Source of the DNA: a virus
Taxonomy: Duplodnaviria; Caudoviricetes
Strand: one strand, 5' to 3'
DNA: 64,000 nt
Virus record (IMG/VR): IMGVR_UViG_3300032007_000017
Below, one piece after another: positions 10,571 through 49,685 of this stretch. Made by a program: the position numbers and the translations under genes. Under the pieces are notes generated by a model. That model made no database searches and was not told where the DNA came from. It saw only the letters and a list, made by a program, of their open reading frames with translations. Each line of letters starts with the position of its first letter. Positions within the stretch are counted from its first letter, which is position 1.

Positions 10571-12533
10571 TTTCTTTCCACTCCTGCAGTTTCTGTATTA
10601 ATTCCTCAGACATTTCCACCTCATTAATGAATGGGCGATAATATCCTCCTTCTGTATGCTTTTCATACAGTGGGAAATAATACTTTTGATATTGGGTAAA
10701 CGGATATCTGCATCCATCATCCATGGTCTCAGGCAGCCTTGCAATAGGATGTCTGGGCTGGATTTCATAGGTGTAGAGATCTCGTATATATGTCACAAGT
10801 TGATTGAAGTTCGGCAATCCTAACCAGCGTGTACCGAATTCTAGCCACTGATGAGATTGTAGATCTTCACAGAATTGTCCTCCTGCTGTATAATGTTCAT
10901 AATGAGTCCTATTATGCTTATCATGGATCTTACCAGCAATAATAATAAGACCAATCTGGACATACGGGAAGACATTAAACTGACGCATAATCGACGGATA
11001 CAGAGATTTATAGTCAGAGTCGACTAGATTCTCAAATACATTCGTCGGATTACCGTTAAGAAATACTCTCGATTTATCGTTAACTTGAAGCGGATCAGCC
11101 ACAAAGGCCCCAGGATAGGGCTGAGCGACATTATCATAATTGATATTATTACCCTTTACGTAACCTCTATCCCAAAGAACTTGCTGACCGCGATTAGCAA
11201 GATATACAGTTTGACGATGAATCTTTGCATATCGAGTATTGTTCATCAAACACTTAGAGAATACATACTCTAAGTCTTGAGTATAATACTCAATACAATA
11301 TTGAACGATAGTATCACAGACGTTATAGAAGAAGAATGTCTTATAGTTTTTATAAGGCAGTAACTCAATCTGAGTTGTGATATCTTTATAGTCAAGCTTC
11401 TTCACCTTGGCTATAATTGTACCAATAGCATCCAATCCATAGGATAGGTACTTTGTCTGTCCTTTTCGTCTGGATGCAAATTGGATCATTTGATCGAGCC
11501 AGACTGTATAAGAAGAGCATGAGAAGAAATCGTTACGCTCATCAAATACATCTTTATTTCTATCGTCGACATAATAGAAGCATTCTTTGACCTTGAAATC
11601 TGGATGGCAGATTACATTTTCTGGTTTTCTACCAAGACGTTCAATTCTTGCAATCAGATATGGAAGGTCGAATGCTTCATTCCATGCCAGACAGAAATCT
11701 GGTTTATAGCTGTTTACCAGTTTAAAGAACTCACGTATCATTCTATATTCATCATCTTCATCATAGAATGCTACATTGAATTTCATATTCTCTAAACCAA
11801 AGTAAAATGGCTCCTTGGTTTCAGAGTTATGATTATTCTCTGAAACATGAGCCAATACAAATTGCTTTAATTCAGCAAGATTCTGCTGAATATTTGCTTC
11901 TAGTTCAGCAATTTGTGGATTCCTAGGATTCCTCAGAAGGAATGTATAGGTCTCCATTCTATCCTGAAAAACGATGGTAATTGCATTGACTGGTGCTTCT
12001 CCAGGTTCCGGAAAATCACCAGCAATATCGATACCATCGACCTCAATATCGAAGAAAGCTTTAGAGATCTGACAGATCTGGTTTGTATAGGTATTATTAA
12101 ACCAAAATCTATAATGATCTTCCAAAGTATTATCTGACATAAACACATCAGGGTGTTTATGAATATCTTTTATTTTTCTGAAATCGCCACTTCGAATAGT
12201 CTCTTTATACCAAGAAGTATATCCGAGCTTATCACAGATATCTGATTCAAGGAATAAATGAGGAGTATCATGGGCATCCACACTATTTAAAGGTGCATAA
12301 GTTCGATTATATGCTACCCGCTTATCAGGTTTTGCAATAAAATATTCATAAGCAGGATTCATAATCTCTTCTTTATGCTTCATTCCTGTTTTATTATCTT
12401 TATAGATAATAGTCATGCATTGAGTATATTTACTCTTTCCATTTTCATCTGGTGGCAACCTCCATTTCTTTACCATAGTATTCATAATGGTAAGATCATC
12501 ACCAGGTTGCCTTGCAGTAAGTTTCAATTGCAT
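10539..12533 (-). CDS. Family B DNA polymerase, N-terminal part (3'-5' exonuclease plus motif A) of a split enzyme
   Basis: ExoI FFDIEVD, ExoII AWNEAFDLPYL, ExoIII YNVCD, motif A DSDYKSLYPSIM; no motif B/C; start placed at MQLKL after AGGTGAG. Confidence 0.85.
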   Translation of the reverse strand: MQLKLTARQPGDDLTIMNTMVKKWRLPPDENGKSKYTQCMTIIYKDNKTGMKHKEEIMNPAYEYFIAKPDKRVAYNRTYAPLNSVDAHDTPHLFLESDICDKLGYTSWYKETIRSGDFRKIKDIHKHPDVFMSDNTLEDHYRFWFNNTYTNQICQISKAFFDIEVDGIDIAGDFPEPGEAPVNAITIVFQDRMETYTFLLRNPRNPQIAELEANIQQNLAELKQFVLAHVSENNHNSETKEPFYFGLENMKFNVAFYDEDDEYRMIREFFKLVNSYKPDFCLAWNEAFDLPYLIARIERLGRKPENVICHPDFKVKECFYYVDDRNKDVFDERNDFFSCSSYTVWLDQMIQFASRRKGQTKYLSYGLDAIGTIIAKVKKLDYKDITTQIELLPYKNYKTFFFYNVCDTIVQYCIEYYTQDLEYVFSKCLMNNTRYAKIHRQTVYLANRGQQVLWDRGYVKGNNINYDNVAQPYPGAFVADPLQVNDKSRVFLNGNPTNVFENLVDSDYKSLYPSIMRQFNVFPYVQIGLIIIAGKIHDKHNRTHYEHYTAGGQFCEDLQSHQWLEFGTRWLGLPNFNQLVTYIRDLYTYEIQPRHPIARLPETMDDGCRYPFTQYQKYYFPLYEKHTEGGYYRPFINEVEMSEELIQKLQEWKENVAVTPNQSF

Positions 12534-12636
12534 AATCTCACCTACTATCTTAATTATTGCACAGTTATAATATATTTTCAAATTGACTTTTAAAGATTAC
12601 ACTAACAGCAAATTATATTAGAAGGAGGATTTCAAT

Positions 12637-13632: not shown

Positions 13633-13639
13633 TGTGAAA

Positions 13640-17234: not shown

Positions 17235-17290
17235 CTCATAATAAGATTAATGATCTGTTTTCATAAAGGTAATAAAAAGAAAAGAGAGAG

Positions 17291-17650
17291 CTATAAGCTC
17301 TCTCTTTTTCTCATAAGTTCTCTCTTCTTTCTCTGCTCAGTATCTGTAAGCTCTTTAAAAGCGCTTAAGAATATTTGAGAATTCAGAGGATTTGCATCAG
17401 GAATTGGAAAACCTCTATCCCAAAGTATAGGAAATGCCTTACCACACTTTATACATCTAAATGTATAGAATGGGGTTCTGGTATTAAATTCCATACAGTG
17501 GGCACCGGCCATGTATTGATCTGCGATCTTTCTATAACCCACTGGATCATTGAAATACTCGTAGAGTTCTATACTTCGATGAGATCTGCAATTAGGGCAA
17601 GTATCAATCGGATCAATCATAAGATTAATCTTTTTGATAAACTCACTCAT
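17291..17650 (-). CDS. Zinc-ribbon protein
   Basis: CPNC...CIKC; start MSEFI after GAGGAG. Confidence 0.65.
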   Translation of the reverse strand: MSEFIKKINLMIDPIDTCPNCRSHRSIELYEYFNDPVGYRKIADQYMAGAHCMEFNTRTPFYTFRCIKCGKAFPILWDRGFPIPDANPLNSQIFLSAFKELTDTEQRKKRELMRKRESL

Positions 17651-18377
17651 TTGTTTCCTCCTCATAATTAGGTGTAGGCGGTGCTACAGGTGGAACAGTA
17701 TTGCTGTATTTATTTCTCCAACGATTGAAAGACCCAAGAAGTTTATACTTATTGGGAAAGTCTCTCGAAAGAGTATCACAATACTTGAAATCTTCCTCAA
17801 AGAACTTATAGTATGTGTCGTTATCTATAGCAATGCCAGTATCAATAAACGCAACTCTGAATGTATCGGGCTTTGTCAGATTGATTCTGGTGTTATTATA
17901 GATATACCATGTGATGATGTGCATGATGGCGAATTTAATCTGGCACAGATATTCACCATCACATGCATCGTCAGGATAAATGATATCCAATAGAAGGTCA
18001 TGCATGACCTTGATAAACTTCATCGTATTGACGCCATCCGCTGTATTAACAGGCGGAATGACAATGATCTTACCTAGTTCGCGGAACAATTCAGAATACT
18101 TGGAAACAGTCTCTGACTTAGCTACACTAGGTTTATTGATATCTTCACAGATTCCGAGCCAATAGTCTCTGCCACGGAATTGAAGATAGTAAAACGAGGT
18201 ATGGTCGAGATCGAAAAGCCTACTACGATTAGCAGGCCCCTCGAAATCGATGATTGCTTGACGAATGGGCTCTTGACCCATGTGAGCAGGATAACTGCCA
18301 GAGATCGCTTTGTTGAAAAGCGTTACTGCGAATTCAAAAAGGTTAGTCGGGTTTTGCGGTGCGATAAACATATCCAT
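17643..18377 (-). CDS. Hypothetical protein
   Basis: RBS AAAGGAGG; ATATTAT-type motif upstream at ~18422-18431. Confidence 0.65.
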   Translation of the reverse strand: MDMFIAPQNPTNLFEFAVTLFNKAISGSYPAHMGQEPIRQAIIDFEGPANRSRLFDLDHTSFYYLQFRGRDYWLGICEDINKPSVAKSETVSKYSELFRELGKIIVIPPVNTADGVNTMKFIKVMHDLLLDIIYPDDACDGEYLCQIKFAIMHIITWYIYNNTRINLTKPDTFRVAFIDTGIAIDNDTYYKFFEEDFKYCDTLSRDFPNKYKLLGSFNRWRNKYSNTVPPVAPPTPNYEEETNE

Positions 18378-18440: not shown

Positions 18441-19190
18441 CTAGATAACCCAAGGCAACTTAGCGAAGGATCCTTTCTCAACATCGTATGCATCGATGAG
18501 ATCTTCTGCAATCGGGGTGGTAGTCCTAAATGCATTGGCTACAATTTCAGGAGTAAGAGAAATTAATTGCTTAACTATGGATACAGTAAGCACATTCGTT
18601 AAAATATTCTTAGAGTTATCAGCCATGAGATTATCACCCATGCGAATATCAACAAAGTGCTTTATGCATCCACGGAAGTCAAGCAGATATACCTTAAGAT
18701 CATCACCAGATATATCTTTCGGATCCTTCTCAAGAAAATCCATTCTCAAGAAGAAATTAATGATATTGAGATGATCATCAAAACTCATGCAATATACAGA
18801 GTTATTGTTGATATTGAAGAGCTTCCCAGGAGTAAGATTGGCATACAGGCCTTGATCCTCATTCTCAACAACAGGAGCTTTAATGCCATAGATATTAAAG
18901 CTCATGGTAAGAGGACGACCAACTCCAAATACAGCATTTCCGATGTTTACTTTTGAATACGGATCTTCGTCTCTAATAATAGAGAAAATCTTCCATCCTG
19001 GATTTCTCTGACTGAATGTCTTAATGATCAAATCATTATCGATTCTATCAGCGATCATACGTTTAAGGTCACCGCTAAAAGATTCATCAAATTTACTTGC
19101 TAGATTATTGAAAACCAGATAGCTTTCATTGCACACATATGTATGTGCTTCTTGCAGTGATGATACCATCTTCTTGACAAAATTAACCAT
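18441..19190 (-). CDS. Hypothetical protein
   Basis: Start MVNFV overlaps the end of the upstream gene. Confidence 0.65.
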   Translation of the reverse strand: MVNFVKKMVSSLQEAHTYVCNESYLVFNNLASKFDESFSGDLKRMIADRIDNDLIIKTFSQRNPGWKIFSIIRDEDPYSKVNIGNAVFGVGRPLTMSFNIYGIKAPVVENEDQGLYANLTPGKLFNINNNSVYCMSFDDHLNIINFFLRMDFLEKDPKDISGDDLKVYLLDFRGCIKHFVDIRMGDNLMADNSKNILTNVLTVSIVKQLISLTPEIVANAFRTTTPIAEDLIDAYDVEKGSFAKLPWVI

Positions 19191-19542
19191 CTTCAAATCC
19201 TTTCTCTGTATCAACCAGATAATTTATCGCATTTGGATTATAGTCTCGGTTAAATCTTTTATACTTCTCTCTGAGGTACTCATCCTCACCAAAAGGATTG
19301 AATCTCCATCCAGAGTCTGTAAGTATAAATTTATCAGATGTAAATCCACACTCCAAGCAATGGAAGACGGTAGAAGTATCGACAACAAAGTTGCTAGGTG
19401 CTCCATCTTCATCCACCATTGCGAAGATGCTATCGCTCTGTTTATAGGCTAATGCAGCTTTAAAACATTGCGGGCAAACGCAAGGAGGAAGTTCCTTAAA
19501 AGGATGATAAAGTTTATTAGTATTTCTTGCCATCTCTATCAC
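19183..19542 (-). CDS. Zinc-ribbon protein with N-terminal LYHPF motif
   Basis: CPQC...CLEC. Confidence 0.6.
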   Translation of the reverse strand: MIEMARNTNKLYHPFKELPPCVCPQCFKAALAYKQSDSIFAMVDEDGAPSNFVVDTSTVFHCLECGFTSDKFILTDSGWRFNPFGEDEYLREKYKRFNRDYNPNAINYLVDTEKGFEDG

Positions 19543-19763
19543 CTACCTGTCGGAAGTGTGTATTTCATCTTAGTGTCATCACCCTCAGCAACAATCTTCA
19601 TATCAGAATATCTATTGCTGGGAGATGATGACATCTCAGTGAAGGATTTACGAGATCCTTTGTAGTACACGGTTCCAATGTTGAATGTTTTACCCATCTG
19701 CTCTTGGATTTTCCTCATGAACTTTTCTTGTTCAGAGGAATAAAGGAAATACTTATACGCCAT
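19539..19763 (-). CDS. Small hypothetical protein
   Basis: Start MAYKY after GGAGG, overlapping the end of the RNAP gene. Confidence 0.6.
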   Translation of the reverse strand: MAYKYFLYSSEQEKFMRKIQEQMGKTFNIGTVYYKGSRKSFTEMSSSPSNRYSDMKIVAEGDDTKMKYTLPTGR

Positions 19764-21729
19764 AAGGCATTCCTCCAACTTGACGGAATGGATAGTAATA
19801 AATCCCAGGCTCAACTGCTTCCATTGCAGTAAAGAGAATCTTTTGACAAGCAACAGCTTTCTCTTTCAATGTCTTAGCCTTAGTTTCACTACCCTTAATA
19901 TTAAGTAATTTCCCTTTTGCATCGAAAAGCTGAAGTTCTCCATTGGCTTTGATATAGTCGTCATAGAGATCTCTATACTTCTCTTCCCAGGTATCAGGTT
20001 CTTCATAGTCAGTAAAGTAACCATCAGTCATATGGTTAAACGGACTAATCAAACCAGTAACACCAGGATTATTATCTGAAGAAGCATCAAGGTCAATTCT
20101 GCCGACATGAGAAGGATGAACAAAACGAATAGATTCAGGAATACTATTGTTGTCATCTTCACCAATGCCAGAGATACCCTTCAAACTGAATTTCAATGCA
20201 AGCAAAGAGTCCATATCACTGACGATATTTCTATACGAAACAAGGTTCGATTTCGAAATAGCCTTCAGAAGGTACATAGGATCAGTTCTGATAGCTCTCT
20301 TAATTGATTCAACAGTGATACGATTATTCTGATCAGAAACACGATTGATACCACGTGCTACTTTATAGATATAGGTAGCAGCAACATACTGTCCGAAACG
20401 AATACGTTTGATACCTACATCATAATTGTCCTTCTTCTTCAGTTCTACGAATTCTCTCATGATCCATCGAAGAACTGAATACATGTCTTCTTTACTTTCA
20501 TCTTTAAGTCTCAGATCCTCTTTGGTAGCGATGTCATAAACGTTTTCGAAAGAATCTAAAATACTCATGCCTTTGTTGTACGTATCCGTAACAGCAGGAT
20601 CACCGGCAAACATAGCTAAGTATTTGTCATTTCCGCAACGATTAAACTCGCCACCAAGAGTCCTAATCCAGAATTCCTTCTTAAAAACTAATCTATAGTC
20701 CATTCCTGGTATCAGGTTAGTAAAGATGCATGTAATGAATCCCTGTGTAACAGGATCATTATCAGTTAAGTACTTATCAGCAATGACGTACAGTTTTCCT
20801 TCTTCTTTCTCGAAGCAATAAACTGATTCGTCAAGACAGGGTTTGTTAGAAACAGCAACTCCATGAATTCCAAGGAATTTCATAGTTCCTTCAAATCCCA
20901 TCTTTGCTAAGAAGTACTTATCAACGCAAACAGTCTTGTTGAAGATATTTGCTCTATAGTTTAAGAGTTTAATCTCTTCACCAGTCCTCATGTCAAATAA
21001 GCCTATCGTATAACGGAAGACTCGAGCGGCCATGAAGATGATCTTGAATGAGATATTCGGGATCTTACTGTTTGTGTAGTTATTATTGTAGGTAGAACCA
21101 TCCACAATCTGGTAGAGAGTGGATCTCACAATACCATTGATTCTAAAGTAGTACTTGTCAATCACTCTCGGAACACAGATATATACATCGAATGATTCTT
21201 CAGAAACTACTTTACCAGCAGCCAGATCTTCAGGACGAATCGAAAGATTATTCTCAAGATTAACTGCAACATGGTATGTCACAATCAGAAGTCTGATATC
21301 CGACTGATTCATATTGATGTATTCATATGGATTATCACGCTTCTTGGTCTTTGTCTTATTACGAGCAAGATACTCATAATAATTAAACATGATCTTCTTA
21401 ATCTGATCATAGTCATCTACAACTCTAAACTTCTCCACTTCGATGGAGAAGTAGTTATTATGTCTTTCACAAGACTTAATAACCTTTTGGAGTTGATCCA
21501 TAACTTCATCATCAGAACGCACAAAAAGATCAGGGTTAAATTGTTCTTTATAGAACTGGTTGAATTGAGACAGAAACTGTCTCTGATTCATTGCATTGAT
21601 AGGAGGCATATCAGGAGGCATAAACCTAGTCCTAGTTGTCTCCTCTACATACTTCAAATAGTCTGTGACTACTTGATCAACTACTACTTTAGAAGTAGTT
21701 TCATTTTTCTTATTCTTCTTCGTCGCCAT
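19753..21729 (-). CDS. Non-virion RNA polymerase beta subunit, N-terminal part
   Basis: YYFRING..STLYQI and RFVHPSHVGRIDLDASSDNNPGVTGLISPF (bacterial [24 protein letters not shown]); ends where the beta-C gene begins. Confidence 0.85.
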   Translation of the reverse strand: MATKKNKKNETTSKVVVDQVVTDYLKYVEETTRTRFMPPDMPPINAMNQRQFLSQFNQFYKEQFNPDLFVRSDDEVMDQLQKVIKSCERHNNYFSIEVEKFRVVDDYDQIKKIMFNYYEYLARNKTKTKKRDNPYEYINMNQSDIRLLIVTYHVAVNLENNLSIRPEDLAAGKVVSEESFDVYICVPRVIDKYYFRINGIVRSTLYQIVDGSTYNNNYTNSKIPNISFKIIFMAARVFRYTIGLFDMRTGEEIKLLNYRANIFNKTVCVDKYFLAKMGFEGTMKFLGIHGVAVSNKPCLDESVYCFEKEEGKLYVIADKYLTDNDPVTQGFITCIFTNLIPGMDYRLVFKKEFWIRTLGGEFNRCGNDKYLAMFAGDPAVTDTYNKGMSILDSFENVYDIATKEDLRLKDESKEDMYSVLRWIMREFVELKKKDNYDVGIKRIRFGQYVAATYIYKVARGINRVSDQNNRITVESIKRAIRTDPMYLLKAISKSNLVSYRNIVSDMDSLLALKFSLKGISGIGEDDNNSIPESIRFVHPSHVGRIDLDASSDNNPGVTGLISPFNHMTDGYFTDYEEPDTWEEKYRDLYDDYIKANGELQLFDAKGKLLNIKGSETKAKTLKEKAVACQKILFTAMEAVEPGIYYYPFRQVGGMPYGV

Positions 21730-22487: not shown

Positions 22488-23189
22488 TTAGGAAATGCGC
22501 AACTGGAAGATAGGCAGATACGGACTATTGCGAGACATTGCAGCCTTAGCAGCAACTGCCACGTCGTTCTTCTCAGTAGCATCATCGTTCTTAACGATCT
22601 GCTTGACAGAATAGCCAGGAACGATGGAGTATACCTTAACACCGCCCTCAAAGCTAACACTAGCCTCGAAGGTGGATTCCATCTTAAGGACAACCTCTTC
22701 CTCAGAATCGTTGGAGTTCGCATCGAGGAAGTTCTTGATCTGATTGATGAACTCTGTTATGATACGAATCAGATCAGAGTTAGAGTCGCAATGCGTACGA
22801 ATGTCAGTGAACAGTTCGGACTGAACGATCGTCAGGAATGCATCGCTGAAGGTATTCAGATTCTCATCACAACCTTCCATATCCTTCTCGTCGAAGGTCA
22901 TGGAGAGAACCCAGTTACCCTCATCTTCGGAATCATCAACCGGAGGCTCATAGTTGAGGATGGTGCCGATCACGAAGTTACCCTTATCATCATTAAAACT
23001 AAATCCAATCTTATGGACATTTTTCTTAGCATGATACTTAGTCATGAGTGCAAAGGAACGGAAGAAGACTCGATAGAGTCCACCGACCATGTACTCGGGG
23101 ACAATCATACTATACTTATCCTTAAGCTTCGTACGGATGTCATTGTTCAGGGTGCAGTTCTTGTCATTCAAAAAATCGAATGTCTTCAT
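22488..23189 (-). CDS. Hypothetical acidic protein (possible HU/IHF-like fold)
   Basis: RBS AAGGAG; codon usage like the major structural genes; weak HU-like pattern at the C-terminus. Confidence 0.55.
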   Translation of the reverse strand: MKTFDFLNDKNCTLNNDIRTKLKDKYSMIVPEYMVGGLYRVFFRSFALMTKYHAKKNVHKIGFSFNDDKGNFVIGTILNYEPPVDDSEDEGNWVLSMTFDEKDMEGCDENLNTFSDAFLTIVQSELFTDIRTHCDSNSDLIRIITEFINQIKNFLDANSNDSEEEVVLKMESTFEASVSFEGGVKVYSIVPGYSVKQIVKNDDATEKNDVAVAAKAAMSRNSPYLPIFQLRIS

Positions 23190-23311: not shown

Positions 23312-25657
23312 TTATATCTGAGAAAGATACCAGTCAATGTTTTTACGAAACTCCTCGATAGCAACTATCTTTGTTTGTGGGCCAATCTTAGTCAACTTAG
23401 TGCTGGTATATCCTGTATAAGGAACAATCAGCAAATCAGTTGCTTTGGTTACACCAGATTTAGAATTAGCATCATAACCTCTTCTAACGAGATCATCTTC
23501 TAATGTCTTATCTCTGCAACCAGTCCATCTTATTTGTTTTTGTTTTACTCCATAAGTGACCTGACAATTAGGCATATGCCTAATGATATTCAAATCCTCC
23601 ATGAAATAAGGTCTTTCCTTAATGATGATATCAGCAGTCTTCTGTCCGATTCCTTTAATACAACGAAGTCTAAAGGAAAGATCATTCGGAGTAGAATTCA
23701 TGATAGCATCAATAGGAACTTCTATCAAAATCTTTTTCCATGTCTCGGCAGCAATATCTGTAAAACCGAGAGCTCCTACCATACGATAGTCAGGAATAGG
23801 ACTATTCAAGAATAATTCTCTGGCTTCTACAAAGTTCTTTGCATTACCAGGCCCTAACTTTAATGCAACATCTGCAGGTTGAATGGTAAGATAATCTTTA
23901 AAAGATCTCAACTTAAGTTTCTTTACTGCAGATTCTGCAAACCCTCTAATGGTTAATTTATCAAGCATATTGGCAACTCTAGAGATTTGTCTTTCAGGAC
24001 AAGTAAAGTTAGGACAATATGCTGAATCTGCCGTACCATCATCCTTATAGAAGAATGTGAGCGGAGATCTACAGAAGGGACAAACAGTCGGAAAAGGTAT
24101 TACTTGTCCAACATGTTCAAAATACTCATCGATATCATTATATCCACCAGGTCTCTTTGTAAGATAAGGCATTACATCATTCACATATGTGAGATAGACT
24201 GGATCACCTTCACAAAGAGCTAGGTCTTGAAATCTACCATAAGAGTGACAAGAAGATTTTGTATGAATAGTACCAATAAATTCCACAGGATCATAATGAG
24301 CCATCGGAATTACAATACCATTCTGTCCTACTTCAAAACTCCAACCTCTAAAGATAGATCTCTTTGTAAGTGGATTGAACTTAATTGCCATAGAGAATTG
24401 ATCTACAGAGTTCTTGGTTCCAAGAATATCTCTAGCATTTTTATCTGCGATATGAACAACCACACCGTCATACATAAAGTTAGAGATCTCTCTCATAGAC
24501 TCTGCTTCTTTTACAAACTCATATACTTGATATAGGACTGTATTATAGTCTCCTTCAATAACAGCATACGGAAGAGCAACATCTTTCGTATAATACTGAT
24601 TCATGAACTTGACTTCATCTACAGGATCTATATCAAGAGAAGTCTTTAATGGAACTAATGTGATAAAGTCACGATACTTATAAGCATCGGTTCCTTTCAT
24701 AATTCCAATGACTCCATTACGAGCATTCTTATAAGACTTTCCTTTAAGCCGTCCAACAATCTCAAGATTAGTCTTTGTAATGATACATTCAAAGAGCATA
24801 CCAAAAGATTCTGTAACAGGAACAGCTCTAGGGAATTTATAATCTTTGAAGATGACAGTCAGATCATCAGCAATATCTGTATTTGCATCACCTCTAGATC
24901 TGGCTCCATGAATTCTATCAGTAACTTCAGTTTCAACAGAGAATCCATCCATCTTAAGCTCTACTAATAGCTTAATATGATTTGGATTTAAAGCTCCCAT
25001 AGAAACTAGCTTACCTAAGAAATCTCGTTCAAAGATCTTAATTGTTGGATCATTAAGAATATCTGGATTGCTTTCAAGAACTTCTTTGATAAGTGTAAAC
25101 TTGCACTTATCGAGAGTTCCACTAAGCTTCCGATATCTTCTCTGTGCATTGATTGTTACACTTCTATACTCTGGATAATCTTTAGGAGGTTTAATCTCAT
25201 AGAAAGCAGGATTGACTGGAGGTTGATTGAATAATTGGTCTCTGAATATCCACTGATCTACTGGCTTTCTAGATTCATCAATCAATTTGAATGGATAATA
25301 ATACTGAGTAGCACTTGTAGTATTATTTCTCTCACTTGTATAATCAATAGGTACAAAATCTGCACCAACTTGATATACATCTGGATAGATTTGCTTATAC
25401 ATATTCATAAGCATATCATAAATTCCATCATCTACAAGTGGTTCTGCATCAAAGTTATTATAGATGATATTGAAGATTCTCATCAATGTATCGAGATCTT
25501 CATTATACTTATCGTCATAGGTATTATTCTTATATGCATCTAAAAGAAACATTACAAAGTTTTGAATGATTCCTTTATTTGCATAAAGTTCTTCCATAAC
25601 AGATCTATCACCGGCAAGCAATCGCTGGTGAGCTTGTTTAATGTCAAATGTTTGCAT
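23312..25657 (-). CDS. ligA: NAD-dependent DNA ligase
   Basis: Motif I ELKMDG, SRGD, DGVVV, AIKF, Zn finger CPFC..CPNFTC, HhH GIGQKTA, C-terminal BRCT. Confidence 0.92.
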   Translation of the reverse strand: MQTFDIKQAHQRLLAGDRSVMEELYANKGIIQNFVMFLLDAYKNNTYDDKYNEDLDTLMRIFNIIYNNFDAEPLVDDGIYDMLMNMYKQIYPDVYQVGADFVPIDYTSERNNTTSATQYYYPFKLIDESRKPVDQWIFRDQLFNQPPVNPAFYEIKPPKDYPEYRSVTINAQRRYRKLSGTLDKCKFTLIKEVLESNPDILNDPTIKIFERDFLGKLVSMGALNPNHIKLLVELKMDGFSVETEVTDRIHGARSRGDANTDIADDLTVIFKDYKFPRAVPVTESFGMLFECIITKTNLEIVGRLKGKSYKNARNGVIGIMKGTDAYKYRDFITLVPLKTSLDIDPVDEVKFMNQYYTKDVALPYAVIEGDYNTVLYQVYEFVKEAESMREISNFMYDGVVVHIADKNARDILGTKNSVDQFSMAIKFNPLTKRSIFRGWSFEVGQNGIVIPMAHYDPVEFIGTIHTKSSCHSYGRFQDLALCEGDPVYLTYVNDVMPYLTKRPGGYNDIDEYFEHVGQVIPFPTVCPFCRSPLTFFYKDDGTADSAYCPNFTCPERQISRVANMLDKLTIRGFAESAVKKLKLRSFKDYLTIQPADVALKLGPGNAKNFVEARELFLNSPIPDYRMVGALGFTDIAAETWKKILIEVPIDAIMNSTPNDLSFRLRCIKGIGQKTADIIIKERPYFMEDLNIIRHMPNCQVTYGVKQKQIRWTGCRDKTLEDDLVRRGYDANSKSGVTKATDLLIVPYTGYTSTKLTKIGPQTKIVAIEEFRKNIDWYLSQI

Positions 25658-25732: not shown

Positions 25733-26854
25733 TCATTTCATAGCTTTTCCAACAGCATTAATTGTTTGCAAAGTTCCATATGAAACCTGTTGATTGTTTT
25801 CTATAATAGCCTTTGCAAGTGCTGCTTCCTCATTATGACGATCAGTATCACGTATCTGATTAATACGTTCAATCATTTCGTCCTGAGAAATATCAAACTC
25901 AAGCGGAGATCTCAAGAAAGGATACTTATACTTTCTATTGAACTCTGCCCTCTCCATAACTGCTTCATGATCAACATATTCACCATCCTGATATTCAATA
26001 AACGGATGATAATAGGTCTTATCAGAAGCAAAGAACTTAAAGGGATTTCTAAGGAAAGGTTGAGCTTTGATTTTAGGAATCTTCATGAACTTAAGAGCTA
26101 ATCCAATTGTCTTTAGATAAGTCGAAAGGATTTCAGCTCCAATGTTTCGTGAATTGTTTTCAAGTTGAATGTCTACATTATATGGGTTGTTTGTCATTGC
26201 AGATTCACAAAGCATTCTAGCTTCAGGAGAAGAAGAATACAACATGAGAACCTGAATTACCAAGTCAATACCCATATGGCTCAGATCACCTAATTCCATG
26301 TCTCCGAATCTAATCGGAGTTCTAGAGAATTGAGCCTTGTATACTTTACTAGCCTTATTACGACTATTCTCATTCTTGATATTAGTTGCAGAAAGACTAG
26401 TAACTGAGAATTTCTCTTCTGCATGCTGCTTCAATCTATAATAATACACATATCCGCAGACAACAGGACGACGAGAAGTGACATATCTAATATTTCCGTT
26501 GGAGTCTTCAAGAGGCATAAGAATATGCTCTTGCTGAATCCAAGGAAATGCGTGTTGTAAAGCTCTGATAGTCTCCAAAGAAGGAGTATCAGTGCCAGGA
26601 TCTACATTGATATACAGCATTCCATCATCAATGATACTACTGATATATTGGGCAACTGTATCATCAGAAGCATTAGAGATAAACTCAGAAAGTACCTGAT
26701 ATTCTTTAGGAGATACAATCTGATAGAATGTCAGAATATTTCTGATATTATCTTCAATACTACTAAATTCATTGCATAATGATTTTACGATATTTTTAGC
26801 CTTATGTGTGTAAGACAGTTCAAATAGCTGACCGCCATTTTCACGTCCGTATAC
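25733..26854 (-). CDS. Non-virion RNAP beta subunit C-terminal part, exon 3
   Basis: VYGRENGGQ completes DIQVNMCG|VYGRENGGQ (bacterial DIVLNPLGVPSRMNIGQ); GYVYYYRLKQH, RFGDME. Confidence 0.9.
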   Translation of the reverse strand, partial: VYGRENGGQLFELSYTHKAKNIVKSLCNEFSSIEDNIRNILTFYQIVSPKEYQVLSEFISNASDDTVAQYISSIIDDGMLYINVDPGTDTPSLETIRALQHAFPWIQQEHILMPLEDSNGNIRYVTSRRPVVCGYVYYYRLKQHAEEKFSVTSLSATNIKNENSRNKASKVYKAQFSRTPIRFGDMELGDLSHMGIDLVIQVLMLYSSSPEARMLCESAMTNNPYNVDIQLENNSRNIGAEILSTYLKTIGLALKFMKIPKIKAQPFLRNPFKFFASDKTYYHPFIEYQDGEYVDHEAVMERAEFNRKYKYPFLRSPLEFDISQDEMIERINQIRDTDRHNEEAALAKAIIENNQQVSYGTLQTINAVGKAMK

Positions 26855-27255
26855 CATATTTTACAAATTATAATATTATAATTTATAAAATCTTTATCTA
26901 TATTCGTTAGATATAGATATAGTCATATAGACTATCTCATACTTTCATATGAGTGGAGATCATTTGTTCATCCTATTTCTAGGAGTCGGATTTTTCGAAC
27001 TCACTTAAGTCCTACTCTCCCGCAAGGAGATGACCGTTGAACCTTCACCATTTTACAGGTGAGTGGCTGCTAAACACCCATTTACTATCATTTAGGATTT
27101 GACCATGTGATAATCCTAATCTCTTTTTTCTGCTTTCGCAACTATCACGCTTACTGTTTCCAGTTACGTTGTAGTGGATTAGGCTTTAGGGTTTCAAAGC
27201 AATTAACCCGAAGTACTTGCATATTACTATACAAGCAGTGCATACTTTAATTTAC
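26855..27255 (-). ncRNA. Group I intron (ORF-less, 401 nt) in nvRNAP beta-C; boundaries may be shifted by 2 nt (26853-27253)
   Basis: Minus strand: P TTAATTGCTTTGAAAC, Q TTTAGCAGCC, R GTTCAACGGTCA, S AACAAATGATCT; P2 and P9 GNRA hairpins; removal restores the frame and a conserved motif. Confidence 0.9.
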
Positions 27256-28365: not shown

Positions 28366-28560
28366 CATATTCTATAGTATTGTAAAATACTCTAGTTCCT
28401 AGTTCACTGAATCCCTACTAGTTTAATACTAGATTTCTTATACTAATATTTCCGGAAGTTACACAAAAATACTAATATAAGAGCGGAATTCTCCGAAGGC
28501 TTAAACTCCCATGTATGGATCATGGTACATAAACACAGCAAAGTATAGAGAACTCTTTAC
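28366..28560 (-). ncRNA. Putative TnpB omegaRNA scaffold
   Basis: Directly downstream of tnpB: TATGTACCATG..CATGGGAGTTTAAGCCTTCGGAG..long hairpin..GGGATTCAGTGAACTAGGAA; resembles right-end RNAs of Firmicute TnpB elements as I recall them. Confidence 0.65.
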
Positions 28561-29821: not shown

Positions 29822-30215
29822 CGAATACACCTCCTTTCTATAATGATTTACATATTAGTACGATGAATATTATTTTACAATACTTTCGAACACCTTTGTC
29901 TATATTCGCAACTTATAGACCCTTTCGGCTCATACTTTCATATGAGTGGAGATCATTTGTTCATCCTATTTCTAGGAGTCGGATTTTTCTTCCACCATAA
30001 GCTTGTGGTTCTACTCTCCCGCAAGGAGATGATCGTTGAACCTTCACCATGCTAATCGTTTAGGTGAGTGGCTGCTAAACATCCCAATCTCTATACTTTT
30101 TATATCCATCACGCTTATCGTTTCCAATTACGTTGTGGATATAGAGCTCTAAGGGATATGTCAAAGCAATTAACCCGAAGTACTTATAGATTACTCTATA
30201 AGCAGTGCGCTATAC

Positions 30216-32874: not shown

Positions 32875-32884
32875 TATATCCTCC

Positions 32885-33208
32885 TTATAAAACAAACTTT
32901 GTTCCAAGATAACTGTTGAAATATTCAGTTATTGGAATCTGATATTTTCGTTGTATGATCGAAAATGGACCACTAAATGTATCACTTGCAATAGTGACTT
33001 TCTTTACAAATCCATTTGGATCTACTCTAAATGAAACATAGGTGCGATTGAATGCACTAAGAGTGATCATCTCATCATCATCGATTGTCACTCCGGTTTT
33101 AATGAGGTAAAGACTCACTCCAGGGTTTAAATAAGATTGAATGTCCTCCTTTAATTGAGAATTAAAATTGGTGTAGCGACGAGTCTTGATTACAATATTA
33201 TCTTCCAT
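32885..33208 (-). CDS. Hypothetical protein
   Basis: RBS AAAGGAG; ATATTAT-type motif at ~33241-33250. Confidence 0.6.
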   Translation of the reverse strand: MEDNIVIKTRRYTNFNSQLKEDIQSYLNPGVSLYLIKTGVTIDDDEMITLSAFNRTYVSFRVDPNGFVKKVTIASDTFSGPFSIIQRKYQIPITEYFNSYLGTKFVL

Positions 33209-33288: not shown

Positions 33289-33939
33289 CTAGGCCTTCTT
33301 TTCTCTTAGTTTGAACTCTGTTCCTATAAATGTTACTACTGGATCACCACGTTGAATAGAATTATGCTGAGACCAGGCATCATTAGTTGCTTTCGCTAAC
33401 TTCTCTTCATTTCTTTTCTTAATGAGAGAAATCATTCGTTCTTTAACTTTAACTAAATTTGCATGTTGGGATCTCTCTTCTGTGCAAACAACGAATTCTC
33501 CAGTAGGTTTATAGATACAGCGAATTCCAGTTTCTACCTTATTGACATTTTGTCCTCCAGGACTCCCACTATGCAAAGGTTCATAAGAAAACATTGATTC
33601 ATCAAATTCTTCTTTATTAACTTCATTGATTCCAACTCGTTGAAATGAAATAAACCAATTCTTTCTCTTATGATTCTTCCTATAAGGACTTTTACAGATC
33701 CATTGAATCGTACCAATATACTTATCGAGATCATCAGGAGTTTCGAAAATAACCGATTTCAAATCTCCAGAATTTTCTCCATCTACTTTAATAGGATCAT
33801 ATATCGGATGATTCATGACAAGATAATGAAAGAATAAACCAGCAGCACATTCACATTCTACGGGAGCATGAATTCCAGCAGAAATCTGATATTGATTGTA
33901 CTTCTTAGCATATTCTTCATCTCTATTCGTTTTTCTCAA
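33289..33939 (-). CDS. prfH: Peptide chain release factor H-like protein
   Basis: QISAG..APVEC, GTIQWICKSPYRKNHKRKNWF, SGSPGGQNVNKVETGIR, ERSQHAN; directly downstream of rtcB. Confidence 0.88.
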   Translation of the reverse strand: MRKTNRDEEYAKKYNQYQISAGIHAPVECECAAGLFFHYLVMNHPIYDPIKVDGENSGDLKSVIFETPDDLDKYIGTIQWICKSPYRKNHKRKNWFISFQRVGINEVNKEEFDESMFSYEPLHSGSPGGQNVNKVETGIRCIYKPTGEFVVCTEERSQHANLVKVKERMISLIKKRNEEKLAKATNDAWSQHNSIQRGDPVVTFIGTEFKLREKKA

Positions 33940-33942
33940 TGT

Positions 33943-35049
33943 TTATCCTCCAGCTTTGAAGTTATATACCGGTCGAATGATATTCTGAATTTCCACAGTA
34001 GGTTCAATGAGTCTCTTAATATAATCAGAATCTTTATATGCCATAGGAGATTCATCAAGAGTATTCTTTGCAACCGTAGTAGAATAAATACCTTTCATCT
34101 CAGATTTAAACTCATTCAATGTATGGTGTTGTGCAATATCAGATCGAGAATACTTACGACCGGCACCATGAGGAGCGGAGCAATTCCAATCCACATTTTC
34201 TTTGCCAACTCCAATAATGCAACCATCTCTCATATTGAGAGGAATAATCACATTATCATCCTTCCCGGCTTTAATAGCTCCCTTACGAAGAATATAATAA
34301 AGCTTTCCATCAAGATTAATATGACCGATATAATTGTGGGGTACAGAAATACACCAGTCAATGTCCCACTTCATTGCCTTGCAGATCGTATACATAATAG
34401 CATATCGATTCAGCTTAGCAAACTCTACACCAATCTCTTGATCATGTATATACATCATACGCAAAGAATCTTCGAGATAGGTGTATGGATGGGGAACTTC
34501 ATCAGACAGTGTAAGCTTATCTGCAGTATTGTGATAGTGCTCTTCAATAGCATATCCAAGAGAACGACTACCACTATGAACCACAAGATAGAAATCATCT
34601 TCTTCATCTTTATCAAGTTCGATGAAGTGATTTCCACTACCAAGAGTTCCAATAGCTCTTTTAGCCTTCTCTAAATCAATCGACTCAGCACAAGCGAGTT
34701 GTTCGAGATCGATATCATCATCAAAGGGACCACTCTTATCTCTATTCTTAGTACCAGATGGAATCAACTCCCTAACTACCTTATCAAGATGATCCATCTC
34801 AATATGCTTCTTGACTTTGATCTTTGCATAGGTCATTCCGCATCCGATATCAGGACCAATCAGTCCAGGACAAATCTTATCATTACGGATGATCATAGAG
34901 AGGCCAACAACTGATCCTTTTCCTGGATGGCAATCGGGCATAATACGAATAGTATTGCCATCAAATACAGGAGATTCGATCATTGTATTGATTGAACCAA
35001 AGGTTGATTTCTCCAAATTTTCTGCAAAGATTTTGCAATCAGCAGGCAT
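33943..35049 (-). CDS. rtcB: RtcB-family RNA ligase
   Basis: MPDCHPG, GPDIGCGM, GTLGSGNHFIE, VHSGSR, HN, RKGA, HGAGR, DESPMAYK. Confidence 0.93.
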   Translation of the reverse strand: MPADCKIFAENLEKSTFGSINTMIESPVFDGNTIRIMPDCHPGKGSVVGLSMIIRNDKICPGLIGPDIGCGMTYAKIKVKKHIEMDHLDKVVRELIPSGTKNRDKSGPFDDDIDLEQLACAESIDLEKAKRAIGTLGSGNHFIELDKDEEDDFYLVVHSGSRSLGYAIEEHYHNTADKLTLSDEVPHPYTYLEDSLRMMYIHDQEIGVEFAKLNRYAIMYTICKAMKWDIDWCISVPHNYIGHINLDGKLYYILRKGAIKAGKDDNVIIPLNMRDGCIIGVGKENVDWNCSAPHGAGRKYSRSDIAQHHTLNEFKSEMKGIYSTTVAKNTLDESPMAYKDSDYIKRLIEPTVEIQNIIRPVYNFKAGG

Positions 35050-35622: not shown

Positions 35623-36774
35623 TTAATAATCAGCTTCGTTGACACCTTTTTGAAAGGACTTGGTTCCAAAGCTATCGAAGAAATCTGAATCGCTTCGACT
35701 GTTTTCCTTCTGGGTTCCCATCATGTCGAATCCGTCATCTTCGAGCTCACTAACCATACCGCCAATGGCATCGAAAAATCCATCTTTGGTTTTATCGACT
35801 TTTGCAGTCTTTTCTTTATAGGACTCAAAGATCTCCTGAATCTCTTCTGTCGGCATCTTCATGCCGCTTGCGATAAAGGAAATCTTGTATTCCTTTGAAT
35901 CGGAATTCTTATGAATGAAGAACTCAAACGGTTCGCCATAGAAGCTTCTCAGATCATTGCCATTATAATCAACAGTATCCTCATCATTGGGAACGTCGAA
36001 GATCATAGCAAGTCTCTTGGCACCAGGATTCACACTGGGAGTGATGAATCCTTGTGATCTGATGAAGTTGCTGAATCCCTTATGGAAATCTTCAGCAGTT
36101 GTTCTTTTAAACCGATAGGTATTGGCTGCCATAAATCCGGGGGTTGTAGCAGCCTTATATAAATCGGTGTCATCCATGACTTGGGTTCCAGTCTGATTAT
36201 AGGAACCGGTCAGGATCCGCATTACTTCGATGAAAAGCTCATTGGCAAGCTTTTCGGCCTTGAACTTATTACCGTTTGCTTGGTCAAGGAACTTCGCATT
36301 CGAAATTCCAATGATAGTAAAATCATCCGAGAGCTCCTGGCAGATTTCGAGACTGTTCTTCATACCTCTGGCATCGTCACCGAAACCAAAGAATAGAACA
36401 ATTATAACGTTCTTTCCTTTCTGCTCATGGAAGTATCTTGCAAGAATGGGAATGCTGGAACTACCGGTACCACCTTCGGTAGCACCGACAAGCACTATTG
36501 CCTGATCATCGTCGTTAACAATGTGATTGATATCAATCTTACCTCCTCTAAGATCGGAGATAAGCATCTCTCTACCAACGGATCTTTCCTTTCCACAACC
36601 ACCCAGGGTTCTGTTTCCCTTACCAAAGATGATTGTATCGAGACCTGTGTTCTCGATATCTTTATCCGTACTATTGATAAGATGGACTTTTTCGGGTTTA
36701 TACCCGCTGCGGACCAGATCTGTGGCAACCTTGTTACCACAAGCGCCACACCCTACGACAGAAAAACTAAGCAT
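35623..36774 (-). CDS. Tubulin/FtsZ-family GTPase (PhuZ/TubZ-like)
   Basis: VVGCGACGNK, GCGKERSVG, signature GATEGGTGS, MDDTD, acidic tail. Confidence 0.88.
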   Translation of the reverse strand: MLSFSVVGCGACGNKVATDLVRSGYKPEKVHLINSTDKDIENTGLDTIIFGKGNRTLGGCGKERSVGREMLISDLRGGKIDINHIVNDDDQAIVLVGATEGGTGSSSIPILARYFHEQKGKNVIIVLFFGFGDDARGMKNSLEICQELSDDFTIIGISNAKFLDQANGNKFKAEKLANELFIEVMRILTGSYNQTGTQVMDDTDLYKAATTPGFMAANTYRFKRTTAEDFHKGFSNFIRSQGFITPSVNPGAKRLAMIFDVPNDEDTVDYNGNDLRSFYGEPFEFFIHKNSDSKEYKISFIASGMKMPTEEIQEIFESYKEKTAKVDKTKDGFFDAIGGMVSELEDDGFDMMGTQKENSRSDSDFFDSFGTKSFQKGVNEADY

Positions 36775-43721: not shown

Positions 43722-43799
43722 GATGACTCCAAACAGCCTCCTTTCTCTAGGCTCATTAATGGTATGTTTCAGGTAAAAAATAAAGGGCCCTTAGGCCCT

Positions 43800-44363: not shown

Positions 44364-44409
44364 AATAAAACCTCCTATAAAATGTAAAGAGGCCCGAAGG
44401 CCTCTTTAT

Positions 44410-46788: not shown

Positions 46789-46990
46789 AATTTTAGATAA
46801 CTCCTTTGCTAGTTTCAATCTTATGTTTATTCATCATTTAAAGAGCGATGTCAGAAACTCTGATATTGTAATAATGAAATTCATATAATCACCTCAATAT
46901 AATAATATCCAACTGAAAGACATATTATTATTATGAGAGTTTATGACCCTTTAAACATTTGATTAGCAATAACACAAGGAGTTGAAACTA

Positions 46991-48532
46991 ATGGCTGATA
47001 AAAAGAAAGTGAATCAAACCGATTTCAAATCCAATATTGAAAACTATTATGACGAATTTAAGTCATATGAAACTTTCGCTGATGCTGTGCGTCATTTGCC
47101 AGGCAACTATTTAGGAGCCATCGGAAATACTGGATGGAAAGCAATGGTTCGAGAAATATTTCAGAATGCTACAGATGAGGCTATTAAAAATGAATCCCCA
47201 TGCAATTATGTCATTCTGAAATATAATGAGAGTGATCAGTCTGCAGAAGTTATTGATAATGGTCGTGGTATTCCGCATAATCACATTATCGATATCTATA
47301 CATCTGCACATGTATCGACTAATTTTATCGAATCGAAAAAGCTATACGAATATTCCTCTGGTGCACATGGCGTCGGCGGTGGCGTTGCAATGGCATTGTC
47401 TGAATTCATGTCCATTGAATCTTCTGTCCTAGGTGTATGCCATCGAGTAGAGTTCAATAGAGGTATTCCTTGGAAATATGGAGAAAAGAAAGTCAAGTCT
47501 GATATCCAACAGGGTACCAGAATATTTCTGACTCCTGATAGAGATATTGTGGGTCAAACTAATCTTACTTCTGATGAAGTATTGAATGGATTAGTTCTAA
47601 AAATCTTCCCACTGATTCCCATTGGATATACTATCGAGTATATTGGTACTAGATATGATGGATCAGTAGATCATCAGATTCTTACCAATAAAGATGGTAT
47701 CATGTTCAATCTGAATAAGAAGGTTGCAAAACCCCTTATTCATCCGATTGAAATCTTTGAAGACAATGGCACCATGAAGTTCCATGCTGTATTTACCTAT
47801 GATCCTACAGCTATGGAAGACTCCGAAGATATCGATGCATTTGCAAACTATACGCCTTGCGTGGGCGTGAATCAAACGAAGTTCTTAGAAGCTCTTTGTT
47901 CATTCTTCACTCAGTATATGAATAAGATCTTCTTAAAAAATCAGAAGATTACTGTTACTCAGGCTGATATTAAGACTGGTCTTAAAGCAGTAGTTGATGC
48001 TGCACATTTGCATCCAATTTTCGAAGGACAAGGTAAAGTGGCAATCAATAATCCTGACTTAGGAAAGTTCATTTATGATCTTACCAAAAAGTCTCTCGAG
48101 AATTGGGCAAAGGTTAATCCTACTGAGCTTGCTAGACTCTGTAAATACTTTAAAGATATTGCAGAGATCAGGTCTAAGCTTGAGAATGGAAAGACCAAGC
48201 TTAGTAATCAATATGCAAAGTCTATAATTTCTGGTGATCCTGAAAAGTATTTGAAAGCCTCCGGCAAGAAAGGTGTAGAGCTCTATATAGTCGAGGGAGA
48301 TTCAGCATTTGGATCTGCTCGTTCTGGTAGAGATCCAGTACACAATGCCGTATTCCCCATACGTGGTAAGATCCTTAATGTATTTGGCAAGGTTAAATCA
48401 GAGGTTTTCAAGAATCAAGAAATAGCATCGATTACCAAAATTATTACAGGTCTTGATCATTATGATAAAGACTTCGATCCTGCAAAATCTAGATTTGATA
48501 AGATTATATTTATGGCTGATGCCGATCCGGAT
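46991..48532 (+). CDS. gyrB: Type IIA topoisomerase / DNA gyrase subunit B, exon 1
   Basis: EIFQNATDE, DNGRGIP, GAHGVG, VEGDSA, PIRGKILN, MADADPD. Confidence 0.92.
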
Positions 48533-49685
48533 AAATATGTGTTGCTGTCCGGCCCAGTGGTGACACTGGTGAACAAAATCCCTTTAATTGCTGGAAACTC
48601 CTTACATCAAGCAAACTACAACGTGGCTAGCAATAGCGAGCGTGAATGTTTGAAAATTGCTTGATTTGGACAATCAGCAGCTAAGACCAATTATAATACC
48701 ACTATTTAAAGAAAGGAGTATAAAATATGTATTATCCATTTATAAGAAATGATATACAGTGGAAACCAATAACTGATGATATGGTACCAAATATAGAAAA
48801 AGATAGATATCTGATTTCTAATGCTGGTACGATATACGATAAATTACAAGATAAAATACTAAGTGTCCATAATTGTGGCGAAGGATATTTAAGTGTATCT
48901 CTTGCAACTATTGATGAATCTGGTTTAAGACACCGTAAAGGAATGCTTGTCCATCGTTTAGTTGGAATGGCATTTATTGATGGTGATTGGAATAAACAGA
49001 TTAATCATAAAGATGGAGATAAAGTTTATTGTGAAGAAGAAAATCTAGAGTGGGTTACACCAAGAGAAAATTTAATGCACGCTTTAGATATGGGTCTTCA
49101 TAAATCCGGCGGAGATAGAATAACGTCACATTTGACAAATGAACAAGCCGTTATTGTTAAACAAGACTTAGCTAATAGAATGACTATTAGCCAGATACTA
49201 AATCACATAGGTCTTGAAGATAATAAAAGAAATAGGGGTTTGATCATTGATATTAAACGTGGAAAAACGTATACTAGAGTGGGCACCGATATATCATATT
49301 CTGTCGAAAAATTATGTGAACGAAGACTAGATAGAAATACTGTAATACAGATATGCGAATATATGCAAGCAAATCCGAATATTACATATGGCTATTATAG
49401 TAGACTTATTGATATGCTTGGGATACCTTGCTATAATCAAGAAGAGCGTTCAATGATTAGAAGTATGATAGGTAGTATTTATCGTAGAAAAGCATATACT
49501 GATATATCTAAAAATTATAATTGGTAAAGTTCAGAGACTATCGAAATGGCGAATAATATTCGTACAGAGTAGAGTAGGATTGTATGATTGCATAAGTTGC
49601 TCTAAATTTATGCAATCATATGATTCGAAATGGGGGACTCTCATATATGTATATGAGATGAAGATATAGTCCAACCGCCTGAAAG
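48533..49685 (+). mobile_element. Group I intron in gyrB with an HNH homing endonuclease in the P6 extension
   Basis: P1 CCGGAT/GTCCGG with U-G at the splice site; P AATTGCTGGAAAC, Q AATCAGCAG, R GTTCAGAGACTA, S AAGATATAGTCC; ends in G; removal restores DADPD|GKHI; ACCAATTATAAT/ATTATAATTGGT stem flanks the ORF. Confidence 0.92.
48727..49527 (+). CDS. NUMOD4-HNH homing endonuclease (I-HmuI-like)
   Basis: WKPI..YLISNAG, VHRLVGMAFI, INHKDGDK..NLEWVTPREN. Confidence 0.9.
   Translation: MYYPFIRNDIQWKPITDDMVPNIEKDRYLISNAGTIYDKLQDKILSVHNCGEGYLSVSLATIDESGLRHRKGMLVHRLVGMAFIDGDWNKQINHKDGDKVYCEEENLEWVTPRENLMHALDMGLHKSGGDRITSHLTNEQAVIVKQDLANRMTISQILNHIGLEDNKRNRGLIIDIKRGKTYTRVGTDISYSVEKLCERRLDRNTVIQICEYMQANPNITYGYYSRLIDMLGIPCYNQEERSMIRSMIGSIYRRKAYTDISKNYNW

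Follow-up and report, generated by a model that had tools for sequence, protein, structure and literature searches.

Phage T4 is reported to possess a clamp, gp45, which binds the tails of the polymerase and the ligase (PDB 1B77, 6DRT; PMC6212786) and also serves as an activator of late transcription (PMC7892883). Phage Mu reportedly relies on the beta clamp of its host for transcribing its late genes (PMC12867686), and transposases are reported to carry motifs which bind the beta clamp (PMC4549789). Here we describe a short peptide tag, Y-x-P-F, which recurs on several replication and transcription proteins encoded in a stretch of 64,000 nucleotides from the virus record IMGVR_UViG_3300032007_000017 (Duplodnaviria; Caudoviricetes), and which, judged from its sequence pattern, probably serves to dock its carriers to one shared partner. 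This whole stretch is referred to as the window, and all positions are those of the window unless another contig is named. The principle of clamp-client docking is known, but the motif, its receptor and its lineage-specific spelling appear to be undescribed in the literature searched, in which no published description of a shared linear tag in these phages was found.

A comparative study reported that the classical clamp is absent from jumbo phages with multisubunit RNA polymerases (PMC7824862), and a clamp-derived polymerase subunit was reported for phage PhiKZ only in October 2026 (PMC13648687, preprint). This protein, Rhc, consists of an RNase H and a clamp-derived domain and acts as a monomeric processivity subunit with a large interface; together with UL42 it is an example of a monomeric clamp-fold factor. 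The same preprint describes that the tail of the PhiKZ polymerase N-subunit forms, jointly with the C-subunit, a folded palm-insertion domain, and it cites a concurrent study in which Rhc of phage Goslar is linked to late transcription.

The window derives from an uncultured AR9-like jumbo phage. Its DNA polymerase N-piece is letter-identical to a protein (P0136) encoded on a contig of 270,305 bp, and hundreds of metagenomic relatives are found on contigs of 240–270 kb, one of them from pig gut. The part that could be read thus amounts to about 64 kb of a genome of about 270 kb. No close relatives were found in IMG/VR or by megablast against phages.

A recurrent peptide outside the catalytic domains

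The occurrence of the motif departs from chance; its copies are placed outside the catalytic domains, keep their positions in relatives and tend to change their spelling together across the sites of one genome. Seven copies are encoded in the frame of real open reading frames (ORFs): YYRPFI in the DNA polymerase N-piece (10626-10643, reverse strand), FYYPFI in ORF12637 (12643-12660, forward strand), LYHPFK in a small Zn-ribbon protein (19495-19512, reverse), YYYPFR in the N-terminal piece of the beta subunit of the phage's late RNA polymerase of non-virion type (nvRNAP; 19783-19800, reverse), YYYPFK in the ligase dependent on nicotinamide adenine dinucleotide (NAD; 25286-25303, reverse), YYHPFI in the last piece of nvRNAP beta (25997-26014, reverse) and MYYPFI in an HNH endonuclease (48727-48744, forward). 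Variants are present nearby, namely RYPF within CRYPFT (10695-10712, reverse) and YYFPL within YYFPLY (10665-10682, reverse), which form copies 1 and 2 of the polymerase tail with YYRPFI as copy 3, and YKYPFL (25913-25930) in the last beta piece.

For the assessment of enrichment, the 63 ORFs of the window were each shuffled 1000 times. The pattern Y.PF was observed 8 times with 1.76 expected, Y[YHR]PF 8 times with 0.20 expected, and the extended pattern [YFLM]-Y-[YHR]-P-F-[IKR], which was defined post hoc from the same data, 7 times in real ORFs with 0.009 expected; for each of the three patterns the observed count was matched in 0/1000 shuffles. An unbiased scan of gapped 3-mers and 4-mers, from which the glycine-rich ORFs were excluded, placed YYPF, YY.PF and Y.PFI within the five most enriched patterns. 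Chance or composition as the source of the motif is ruled out by these per-protein shuffles. The eighth Y.PF match falls into a small ORF (29806-30000, forward) antisense to the TnpB region, which is probably not a gene.

The copies use different synonymous codons (TAT/TAC; CCA/CCT/CCG; TTC/TTT), suggesting that the constraint acts on the peptide and not on a DNA repeat, and Rfam gave no match at gathering thresholds. On both grounds, explanations at the level of the DNA, be it a repeat, a promoter or an intron element, were rejected.

Every copy lies outside the region of its protein that is aligned by Pfam or PHROG. In detail, the polymerase N-piece (10539-12533, reverse; 664 residues from the ATG at 12533) carries three tags at residues 624-652, beyond a profile match to residues 34-596 of the 680-residue ORF (PF03104, E 2.7e-11; phrog_3011, E 1.2e-53) which covers 561 of the 576 profile positions. 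It contains the exonuclease domain and motif A (SLYPS) of a family-B polymerase, which neither motif B nor motif C follows, and by its sequence fits the N-subunit of the split family-B polymerases of jumbo phages with multisubunit RNA polymerases, its layout matching that given for PhiKZ (PMC13648687). In the nvRNAP beta N-piece (19753-21729, reverse; 25–29% identity to the nvRNAP beta of AR9 and S6) phrog_2943 matches residues 161-571 of 658 and the tag follows in the C-terminal tail at residues 644-649. The NAD ligase (23312-25657, reverse) has its tag at residues 119-124 of an N-terminal extension, and its matches to PF01653, PF03120 and phrog_3869 begin at residue 223. The last piece of the beta C-half (25733-26857, reverse) is matched by phrog_3295 at residues 3-236 of 374, its two tail tags, YYHPFI and YKYPFL, lie at residues 282-287 and 310-315, and both sites are kept in 9 relatives.

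The three remaining carriers have the tag near their N-terminus. In ORF12637 (12637-13632, forward), a conserved protein of 331 residues with no Pfam or PHROG family match and a poorly folded Atlas model, it comprises residues 3-8. The Zn-ribbon protein (19183-19542, reverse) shows the tag site in 9 of 9 relatives. In the endonuclease (48727-49527, forward) the tag forms residues 1-6, ahead of a profile match that starts with residue 11.

The sheath-like and virion structural ORFs at 2981-3709, 3981-5861, 5885-6784 and 7221-9677 contain no Y.PF. A first-pass annotation of the window, made from the sequence, had listed the seven peptides and their nearby variants and had taken them for a protein motif rather than a DNA repeat, located at termini or in insertions outside the catalytic folds and not seen in the structural proteins; all of this was borne out, and the enrichment over shuffles that it had set as a condition is present as well.

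Further proteins may belong to the tagged set. A conserved protein of 233 residues (22488-23189, reverse) ends in PYLPIF (22506-22523), and its orthologues end in YYCPF (L006), YYPI and YYSPI (L005) or TPIYVM (L003; the L numbers denote related metagenomic loci), so that this C-terminus is a probable variant of the tag. A second Zn-ribbon protein (17291-17665) has PIIF at its N-terminus in L003 and PMLF in L010.

Some observations on these genes may be added. Close to the C-terminus of the first Zn-ribbon protein (residues 81-86) another N-P-F is conserved, which is unchanged in L009 and L010 despite their differing tag spelling. The nvRNAP beta C-half is encoded in two pieces (27247-28368 and 25733-26857, reverse) separated by a 390-nt gap free of ORFs, and a TnpB-type ORF (28565-29830) lies upstream. 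Rfam detected no intron at gathering thresholds. In the closest relative, L001 (83% beta-N identity), the ORF of the polymerase N-piece ends at 488 residues and the gene is interrupted (L001 19358-21953), followed by an IS605-type TnpB gene (PF12323, PF07282). Two other conserved proteins without an assigned function (18441-19214 and 31972-32907, both reverse) have invariant C-termini of the form [LI]-P-W-x-I and hydrophobic-x-[IV]-P; these endings are constant between the genomes in the orthologues of L001 to L010, unlike the tag.

Conservation, joint change of spelling and a tagged endonuclease

The orthologous module was taken from 11 related contigs, in which the gene order is conserved. 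Nine tag sites, i.e. three in the polymerase tail, two in the beta tail and one each at the N-termini of ORF12637 and the Zn-ribbon protein, in the beta-N tail and in the linker of the ligase, are conserved by position in up to 9 related metagenomic loci, whose beta-N identity to the window ranges from 83% down to 48%, and the proline is nearly invariant. The conservation in orthologues on which the first-pass annotation had made its proposal depend is thereby present at all nine sites. AR9, which has the same gene order, carries no tag on beta-N, beta-C or ligase, suggesting a tag confined to the uncultured clade. Among the 120 homologues whose beta-N tails were inspected, one sub-lineage (about 73% identity; P0004-P0013, with L004 at 10001-11824) has lost the beta-N tail tag; L004 keeps Y-x-P-F in other proteins despite this loss.

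The residue after the proline varies between genomes and tends to be uniform across the sites of one genome. In detail, the window has F after the proline at 8/9 sites, and F is likewise found at 6/6 in L001, 6/6 in L002, 8/9 in L004 and 5/5 in L006. It is I at 7/8 sites in L003 and 7/9 in L008, I or V at 8/8 in L009, where in addition W stands two residues before the proline at 6/8 sites, and M at 4/4 in L010. Concordant pairs of sites within a genome numbered 176, compared to 96.5 in shuffles within each site (matched in 0/20000), in a test that ignores relatedness. Tandem copies within one protein behave in the same manner: the aligned site of the first polymerase-tail copy is present in 82 homologues, and two aligned copies share the residue after the proline in 61 of these 82, with 25.5 expected (matched in 0/10000).

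The tagged endonuclease belongs to the HNH/NUMOD4 homing type and is encoded in an insertion which splits the gene for the large subunit of topoisomerase II (46982-48664 and 49725-50615, forward). Its matches to PF13392, PF07463 and phrog_59 begin at residue 11, with MYYPFIRN as an added N-terminal peptide. An exhaustive search yielded 83 single-domain relatives, which are library sequences without genomic context. A tag-like peptide was found within the first 18 residues of 26 of these 83 relatives, compared to 1% of the other 18-residue windows from the same proteins, and its forms include PIIF, PMIF, PVVF, YYPF and YKYPF. The NUMOD4 signature W-K-P-I at residues 11-15 (48757-48771, forward) resembles the W-x-P-I tag of L009, and for this reason NUMOD4 matches of the form W-x-P-[IV] were excluded from the count. 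The comparison indicates that a selfish endonuclease family carries the tag in several spellings, i.e. that it appears to have adopted the address tag of its host phage.

A candidate receptor and the weighing of explanations

Directly after the polymerase N-piece lies a gene for a protein of 270 residues (9758-10570, reverse). Its start overlaps the stop codon of the polymerase by 32 nt (10539-10570), and an overlap of 32–35 nt is kept in L003, L004, L005, L008, L012 and L013, suggesting that both genes are probably translationally coupled. At this junction the polymerase C-terminus PNQSF and the N-terminus MWLSHPINPS of the 270-residue protein are both highly conserved.

An AlphaFold2 model of this protein, built with 17 homologues, reached a mean predicted local distance difference test (pLDDT) of 86.8 and a predicted template modelling score (pTM) of 0.85. 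Foldseek returned sliding clamps as the sole matches. VIA-align placed T4 gp45 first (Z 9.3, range 9.1–9.3; root-mean-square deviation 4.7–4.9; 188–189 aligned residues; model residues 15-270), and in a search independent of Foldseek the top 38 of 48,161 representative chains were all clamp-fold proteins, comprising gp45, beta, PCNA, 9-1-1 and the herpesvirus proteins UL42, UL44, BMRF1 and PF-8, below which the scores fell off to matches of about 50 residues. UL42 and UL44 matched with Z 5.2–6.3. The product of 9758-10570 is therefore predicted to have a two-domain sliding-clamp fold, which the model matches over its full length. It diverges faster than the tagged enzymes, with 58% identity compared to 80–83% for polymerase, ligase and beta-N in what is apparently the same relative.

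Because of its fold, its position, the probable translational coupling, the list of tagged clients and its rapid divergence we regard this protein as the best candidate for the receptor, and the chance that it is indeed the partner of the tag as slightly less than even. Co-folding of three copies of it with polymerase tail residues 598-664, run without controls, gave a score of 0.00, which speaks neither for nor against binding. ORF12637 and ORF 18441-19214 were considered as alternative hubs by Atlas look-ups, which gave no usable lead.

The explanation that we favour as a whole, with about an even chance of being right, is that of a docking motif which is used throughout the clade and tethers enzymes to a phage-encoded receptor, with the clamp-fold protein as its candidate. 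Y-x-P-F would be the version used by this phage of a clade-wide motif of the form hydrophobic/aromatic-x-P-hydrophobic, often followed by x-F. The tags would be borne by flexible parts, namely tails, linkers and N-termini, with three copies on the polymerase and others on both tagged beta pieces and on the ligase. Small Zn-ribbon proteins (one at least), two proteins without an assigned function and the homing endonuclease encoded by the mobile insertion would be further clients. All of them would be tethered to one fast-evolving receptor encoded by the phage. This receptor may be a platform on the phage DNA, either mobile or attached to the polymerase, comparable to T4 gp45 and the polymerase, ligase and late-transcription proteins that it serves. 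The endonuclease may have acquired the tag for access to replicating phage DNA. The first-pass annotation had proposed a short linear motif that binds a shared hub, and the positional conservation, the in-step spelling, the agreement of the tandem copies and the tagged HNH relatives argue strongly for it, in an evolutionary and indirect way. Its suggestion of a clamp or scaffold as the hub has gained a concrete clamp-fold candidate encoded directly after the polymerase.

The same annotation had named, as another possible hub, an import factor of a replication compartment. Following this idea, the peptide would be an address tag read by an import or retention factor of a compartment positioned by the phage tubulin, through which the tagged enzymes and the selfish endonuclease would gain access to the phage DNA enclosed there. 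The tubulin is real, since a tubulin/PhuZ-like gene is found in the window (35623-36774; PF00091, 36.3 bits at a cut-off of 33) and in relatives; the import factor itself gained no support of its own. Ligase and nvRNAP subunits are the kinds of proteins that are imported into chimallivirus nuclei (PMC13282480), and a change of the tag in step across the genome would fit an importer as well as a clamp. However, no gene for a shell protein (chimallin) or for a PicA/Imp1-like importer was recognised among the ORFs of the window, AR9 as the nearest cultured relative of the clade is stated not to be a member of the family that forms nuclei, and chimallin is missing from many jumbo phages (PMC13282480). 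In addition, the nucleus-forming family imports via surface patches and not via linear signals (PMC12908238), UvsX and topoisomerase II would need entry yet are untagged, and a tag repeated three times in tandem on the polymerase would be more in keeping with a multivalent platform than with a signal for a single passage. We therefore consider an import tag unlikely.

It is quite improbable that the tag recruits a host protein instead, such as the host beta clamp, the single-stranded DNA-binding protein (SSB) or a chaperone. Host clamp and SSB have strongly conserved pockets, whose peptide ligands follow other consensus sequences (QL[SD]LF), whereas the spelling of the tag differs as F, I or M among close relatives (50–83% beta-N identity), and a fast-diverging clamp-fold protein of the phage itself adjoins the polymerase gene. 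On the other side stand the reported use of the host clamp by phage Mu (PMC12867686) and the reported binding of mobile elements to the clamp (PMC4549789), and a DnaJ-domain protein of the phage (55259-56473, forward; PF00226, E 5.7e-8) hints at the use of chaperones. A role other than docking, either as a structural or assembly element, for instance in the fitting of split subunits, or as a site on which a protease or a modifying enzyme acts, would agree with the fact that three of the tagged proteins (polymerase N-piece, beta-N and last beta piece) are pieces of split enzymes, and with the PhiKZ polymerase N-piece, whose tail folds together with the C-piece (PMC13648687). However, the unsplit ligase, the Zn-ribbon protein, ORF12637, the 233-residue protein and the HNH endonuclease share the tag in the spelling of their genome, and both tail tags are kept in L001, L005 and L008, where one ORF of 739–758 residues encodes the whole beta C-half. 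Such a role is very improbable.

Several points weigh against docking to the clamp-fold protein, which nevertheless remains the explanation that we favour. UvsX, SbcC and both subunits of topoisomerase II carry no Y.PF, so that the term 'DNA-acting proteins' of the first-pass annotation describes the tagged set and is too broad. The polymerase tail is modelled as coil with pLDDT below 50; this says little about disorder, because the entire C-terminal half is poorly modelled. Since the PhiKZ tail is folded, part of the polymerase tail of the window may not be free either. The assignment as a clamp is one of fold, with no sequence similarity to solved clamps: the ORF had no match in Pfam or PHROG, a profile of the 17 homologues had none among PDB sequences with E up to 10, and hhalign gave a probability of 0.1 against PhiKZ Rhc (gp155). 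No clamp loader (RFC-like or gp44-like ATPase) was found among the ORFs of the window, i.e. in about 64 of about 270 kb.

The spelling gives reasons for caution as well. L005 has a mixture of I, F and L after the proline, and of the more distant loci L012 has mixed spellings and L013 has PM in the polymerase and PV, PI and PF elsewhere, which speaks against a dialect in the strict sense. When tail copies 1 and 2 were compared in independent pairs, chosen on a tree built from the catalytic part of the polymerase, the outcome was about 4 same and 0 opposite for M, about 3 same and 0 opposite for I, and 1.6 same and 0.5 opposite for F; the corresponding sign test that takes the phylogeny into account is not significant (median p 0.125–0.25) and cannot become so with its 5–6 independent pairs. 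A fair summary of these sequences seems to be a common core of P plus a hydrophobic residue, often with x-F, and a strong but not absolute tendency to a uniform spelling within a genome.

Taken further, these observations might be read as a peptide code private to each lineage, in which one fast-evolving clamp-like receptor and a dozen or more clients co-evolve, or else as a linear import signal for a compartment without chimallin; we put this forward as a tentative possibility. If it is true, replication, late transcription, ligation and the homing of selfish introns would be coupled on one platform, and a spelling of its own would protect each phage against the docking of enzymes and parasites that belong to co-infecting relatives, whereas the import version would represent the first linear targeting signal known in phage. 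The docking explanation, if correct, would provide a direct handle on the organisation of replication and late transcription in these phages and name a receptor that can be tested. The tag would also assign ORF12637, the Zn-ribbon proteins and the 233-residue protein to the replication-transcription machinery, and pairs of peptide and receptor could serve as orthogonal docking modules.

Genomic setting and comparison with described systems

Genes for replication, transcription and repair fill the window from about 9.7 to 50.6 kb and include the N-piece of the split family-B DNA polymerase, SbcC, nvRNAP beta in several pieces, NAD ligase, UvsX, RtcB, tubulin and topoisomerase II; structural genes are located at 3–9.7 kb. 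The RtcB RNA ligase adjoins a protein with an RF-1-type domain (33289-35049, reverse). Four large ORFs of 398–505 residues at 57644-63711 (reverse) are extremely glycine-rich, with many GGGG, GGYG and GGNG runs, and have one weak match to PF21722 (Gly_rich_2) and one weak match to a tail-fibre-assembly PHROG. In this region the GC skew goes down to -0.5. No tRNAs were found in the window.

The import of proteins into the chimallivirus nucleus by PicA/Imp1 (PMC12908238, PMC13282480) likewise selects replication and transcription enzymes of the phage, and its determinants differ between phage species. In contrast to the linear peptide in the tails described here, its cargo is recognised in folded form by patches on the surface, and signals at the termini are explicitly not used; AR9 is not a member of that family, and the window contains no recognised gene for a shell or an importer.

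PhiKZ shares with the phage of the window its jumbo size class, the split family-B polymerase and a clamp-fold accessory protein that had previously not been annotated. Unlike Rhc, the protein of the window has no RNase H domain, the clamp-fold match extending from end to end over its 270 residues, and its gene follows that of the polymerase N-piece directly. Rhc also binds via a large folded interface and not via a shared linear tag.

The PIP box (PCNA-interacting peptide) and the QL[SD]LF motif of the beta-clamp 'toolbelt' (PMC9690074) represent the same general arrangement, in which one hydrophobic pocket of a hub serves many DNA enzymes through a motif in a terminus or linker, and mobile-element proteins are reported to exploit this hub too (PMC4549789). 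Here the consensus has a central proline, is private to a lineage and has a receptor that is a candidate. The tag shows the trait of clamp clients, being a short motif on flexible ends or linkers of polymerase, ligase, nuclease and transcription proteins, and contains neither the Q-x-x-L nor the L-D-F-L-F pattern of known clamp-client consensus sequences.

T4 gp45 differs from the clamp-fold protein of the window in that both have no sequence similarity, that the T4 motif is unrelated to Y-x-P-F and that no clamp loader lies within the part read. The tags of the window are moreover found on the phage's own multisubunit RNA polymerase and on a homing endonuclease, a protein can have as many as three of them in tandem, and within the clade their spelling varies between related phages. 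Nevertheless, in structure the candidate receptor is matched best by the gp45 of T4 and RB69, a two-domain clamp protomer encoded by the phage; its clients are likewise the polymerase, the ligase and the late-transcription machinery (the gp43 C-terminus, ligase, gp33 and gp55), and these are likewise bound by short peptides on flexible ends.

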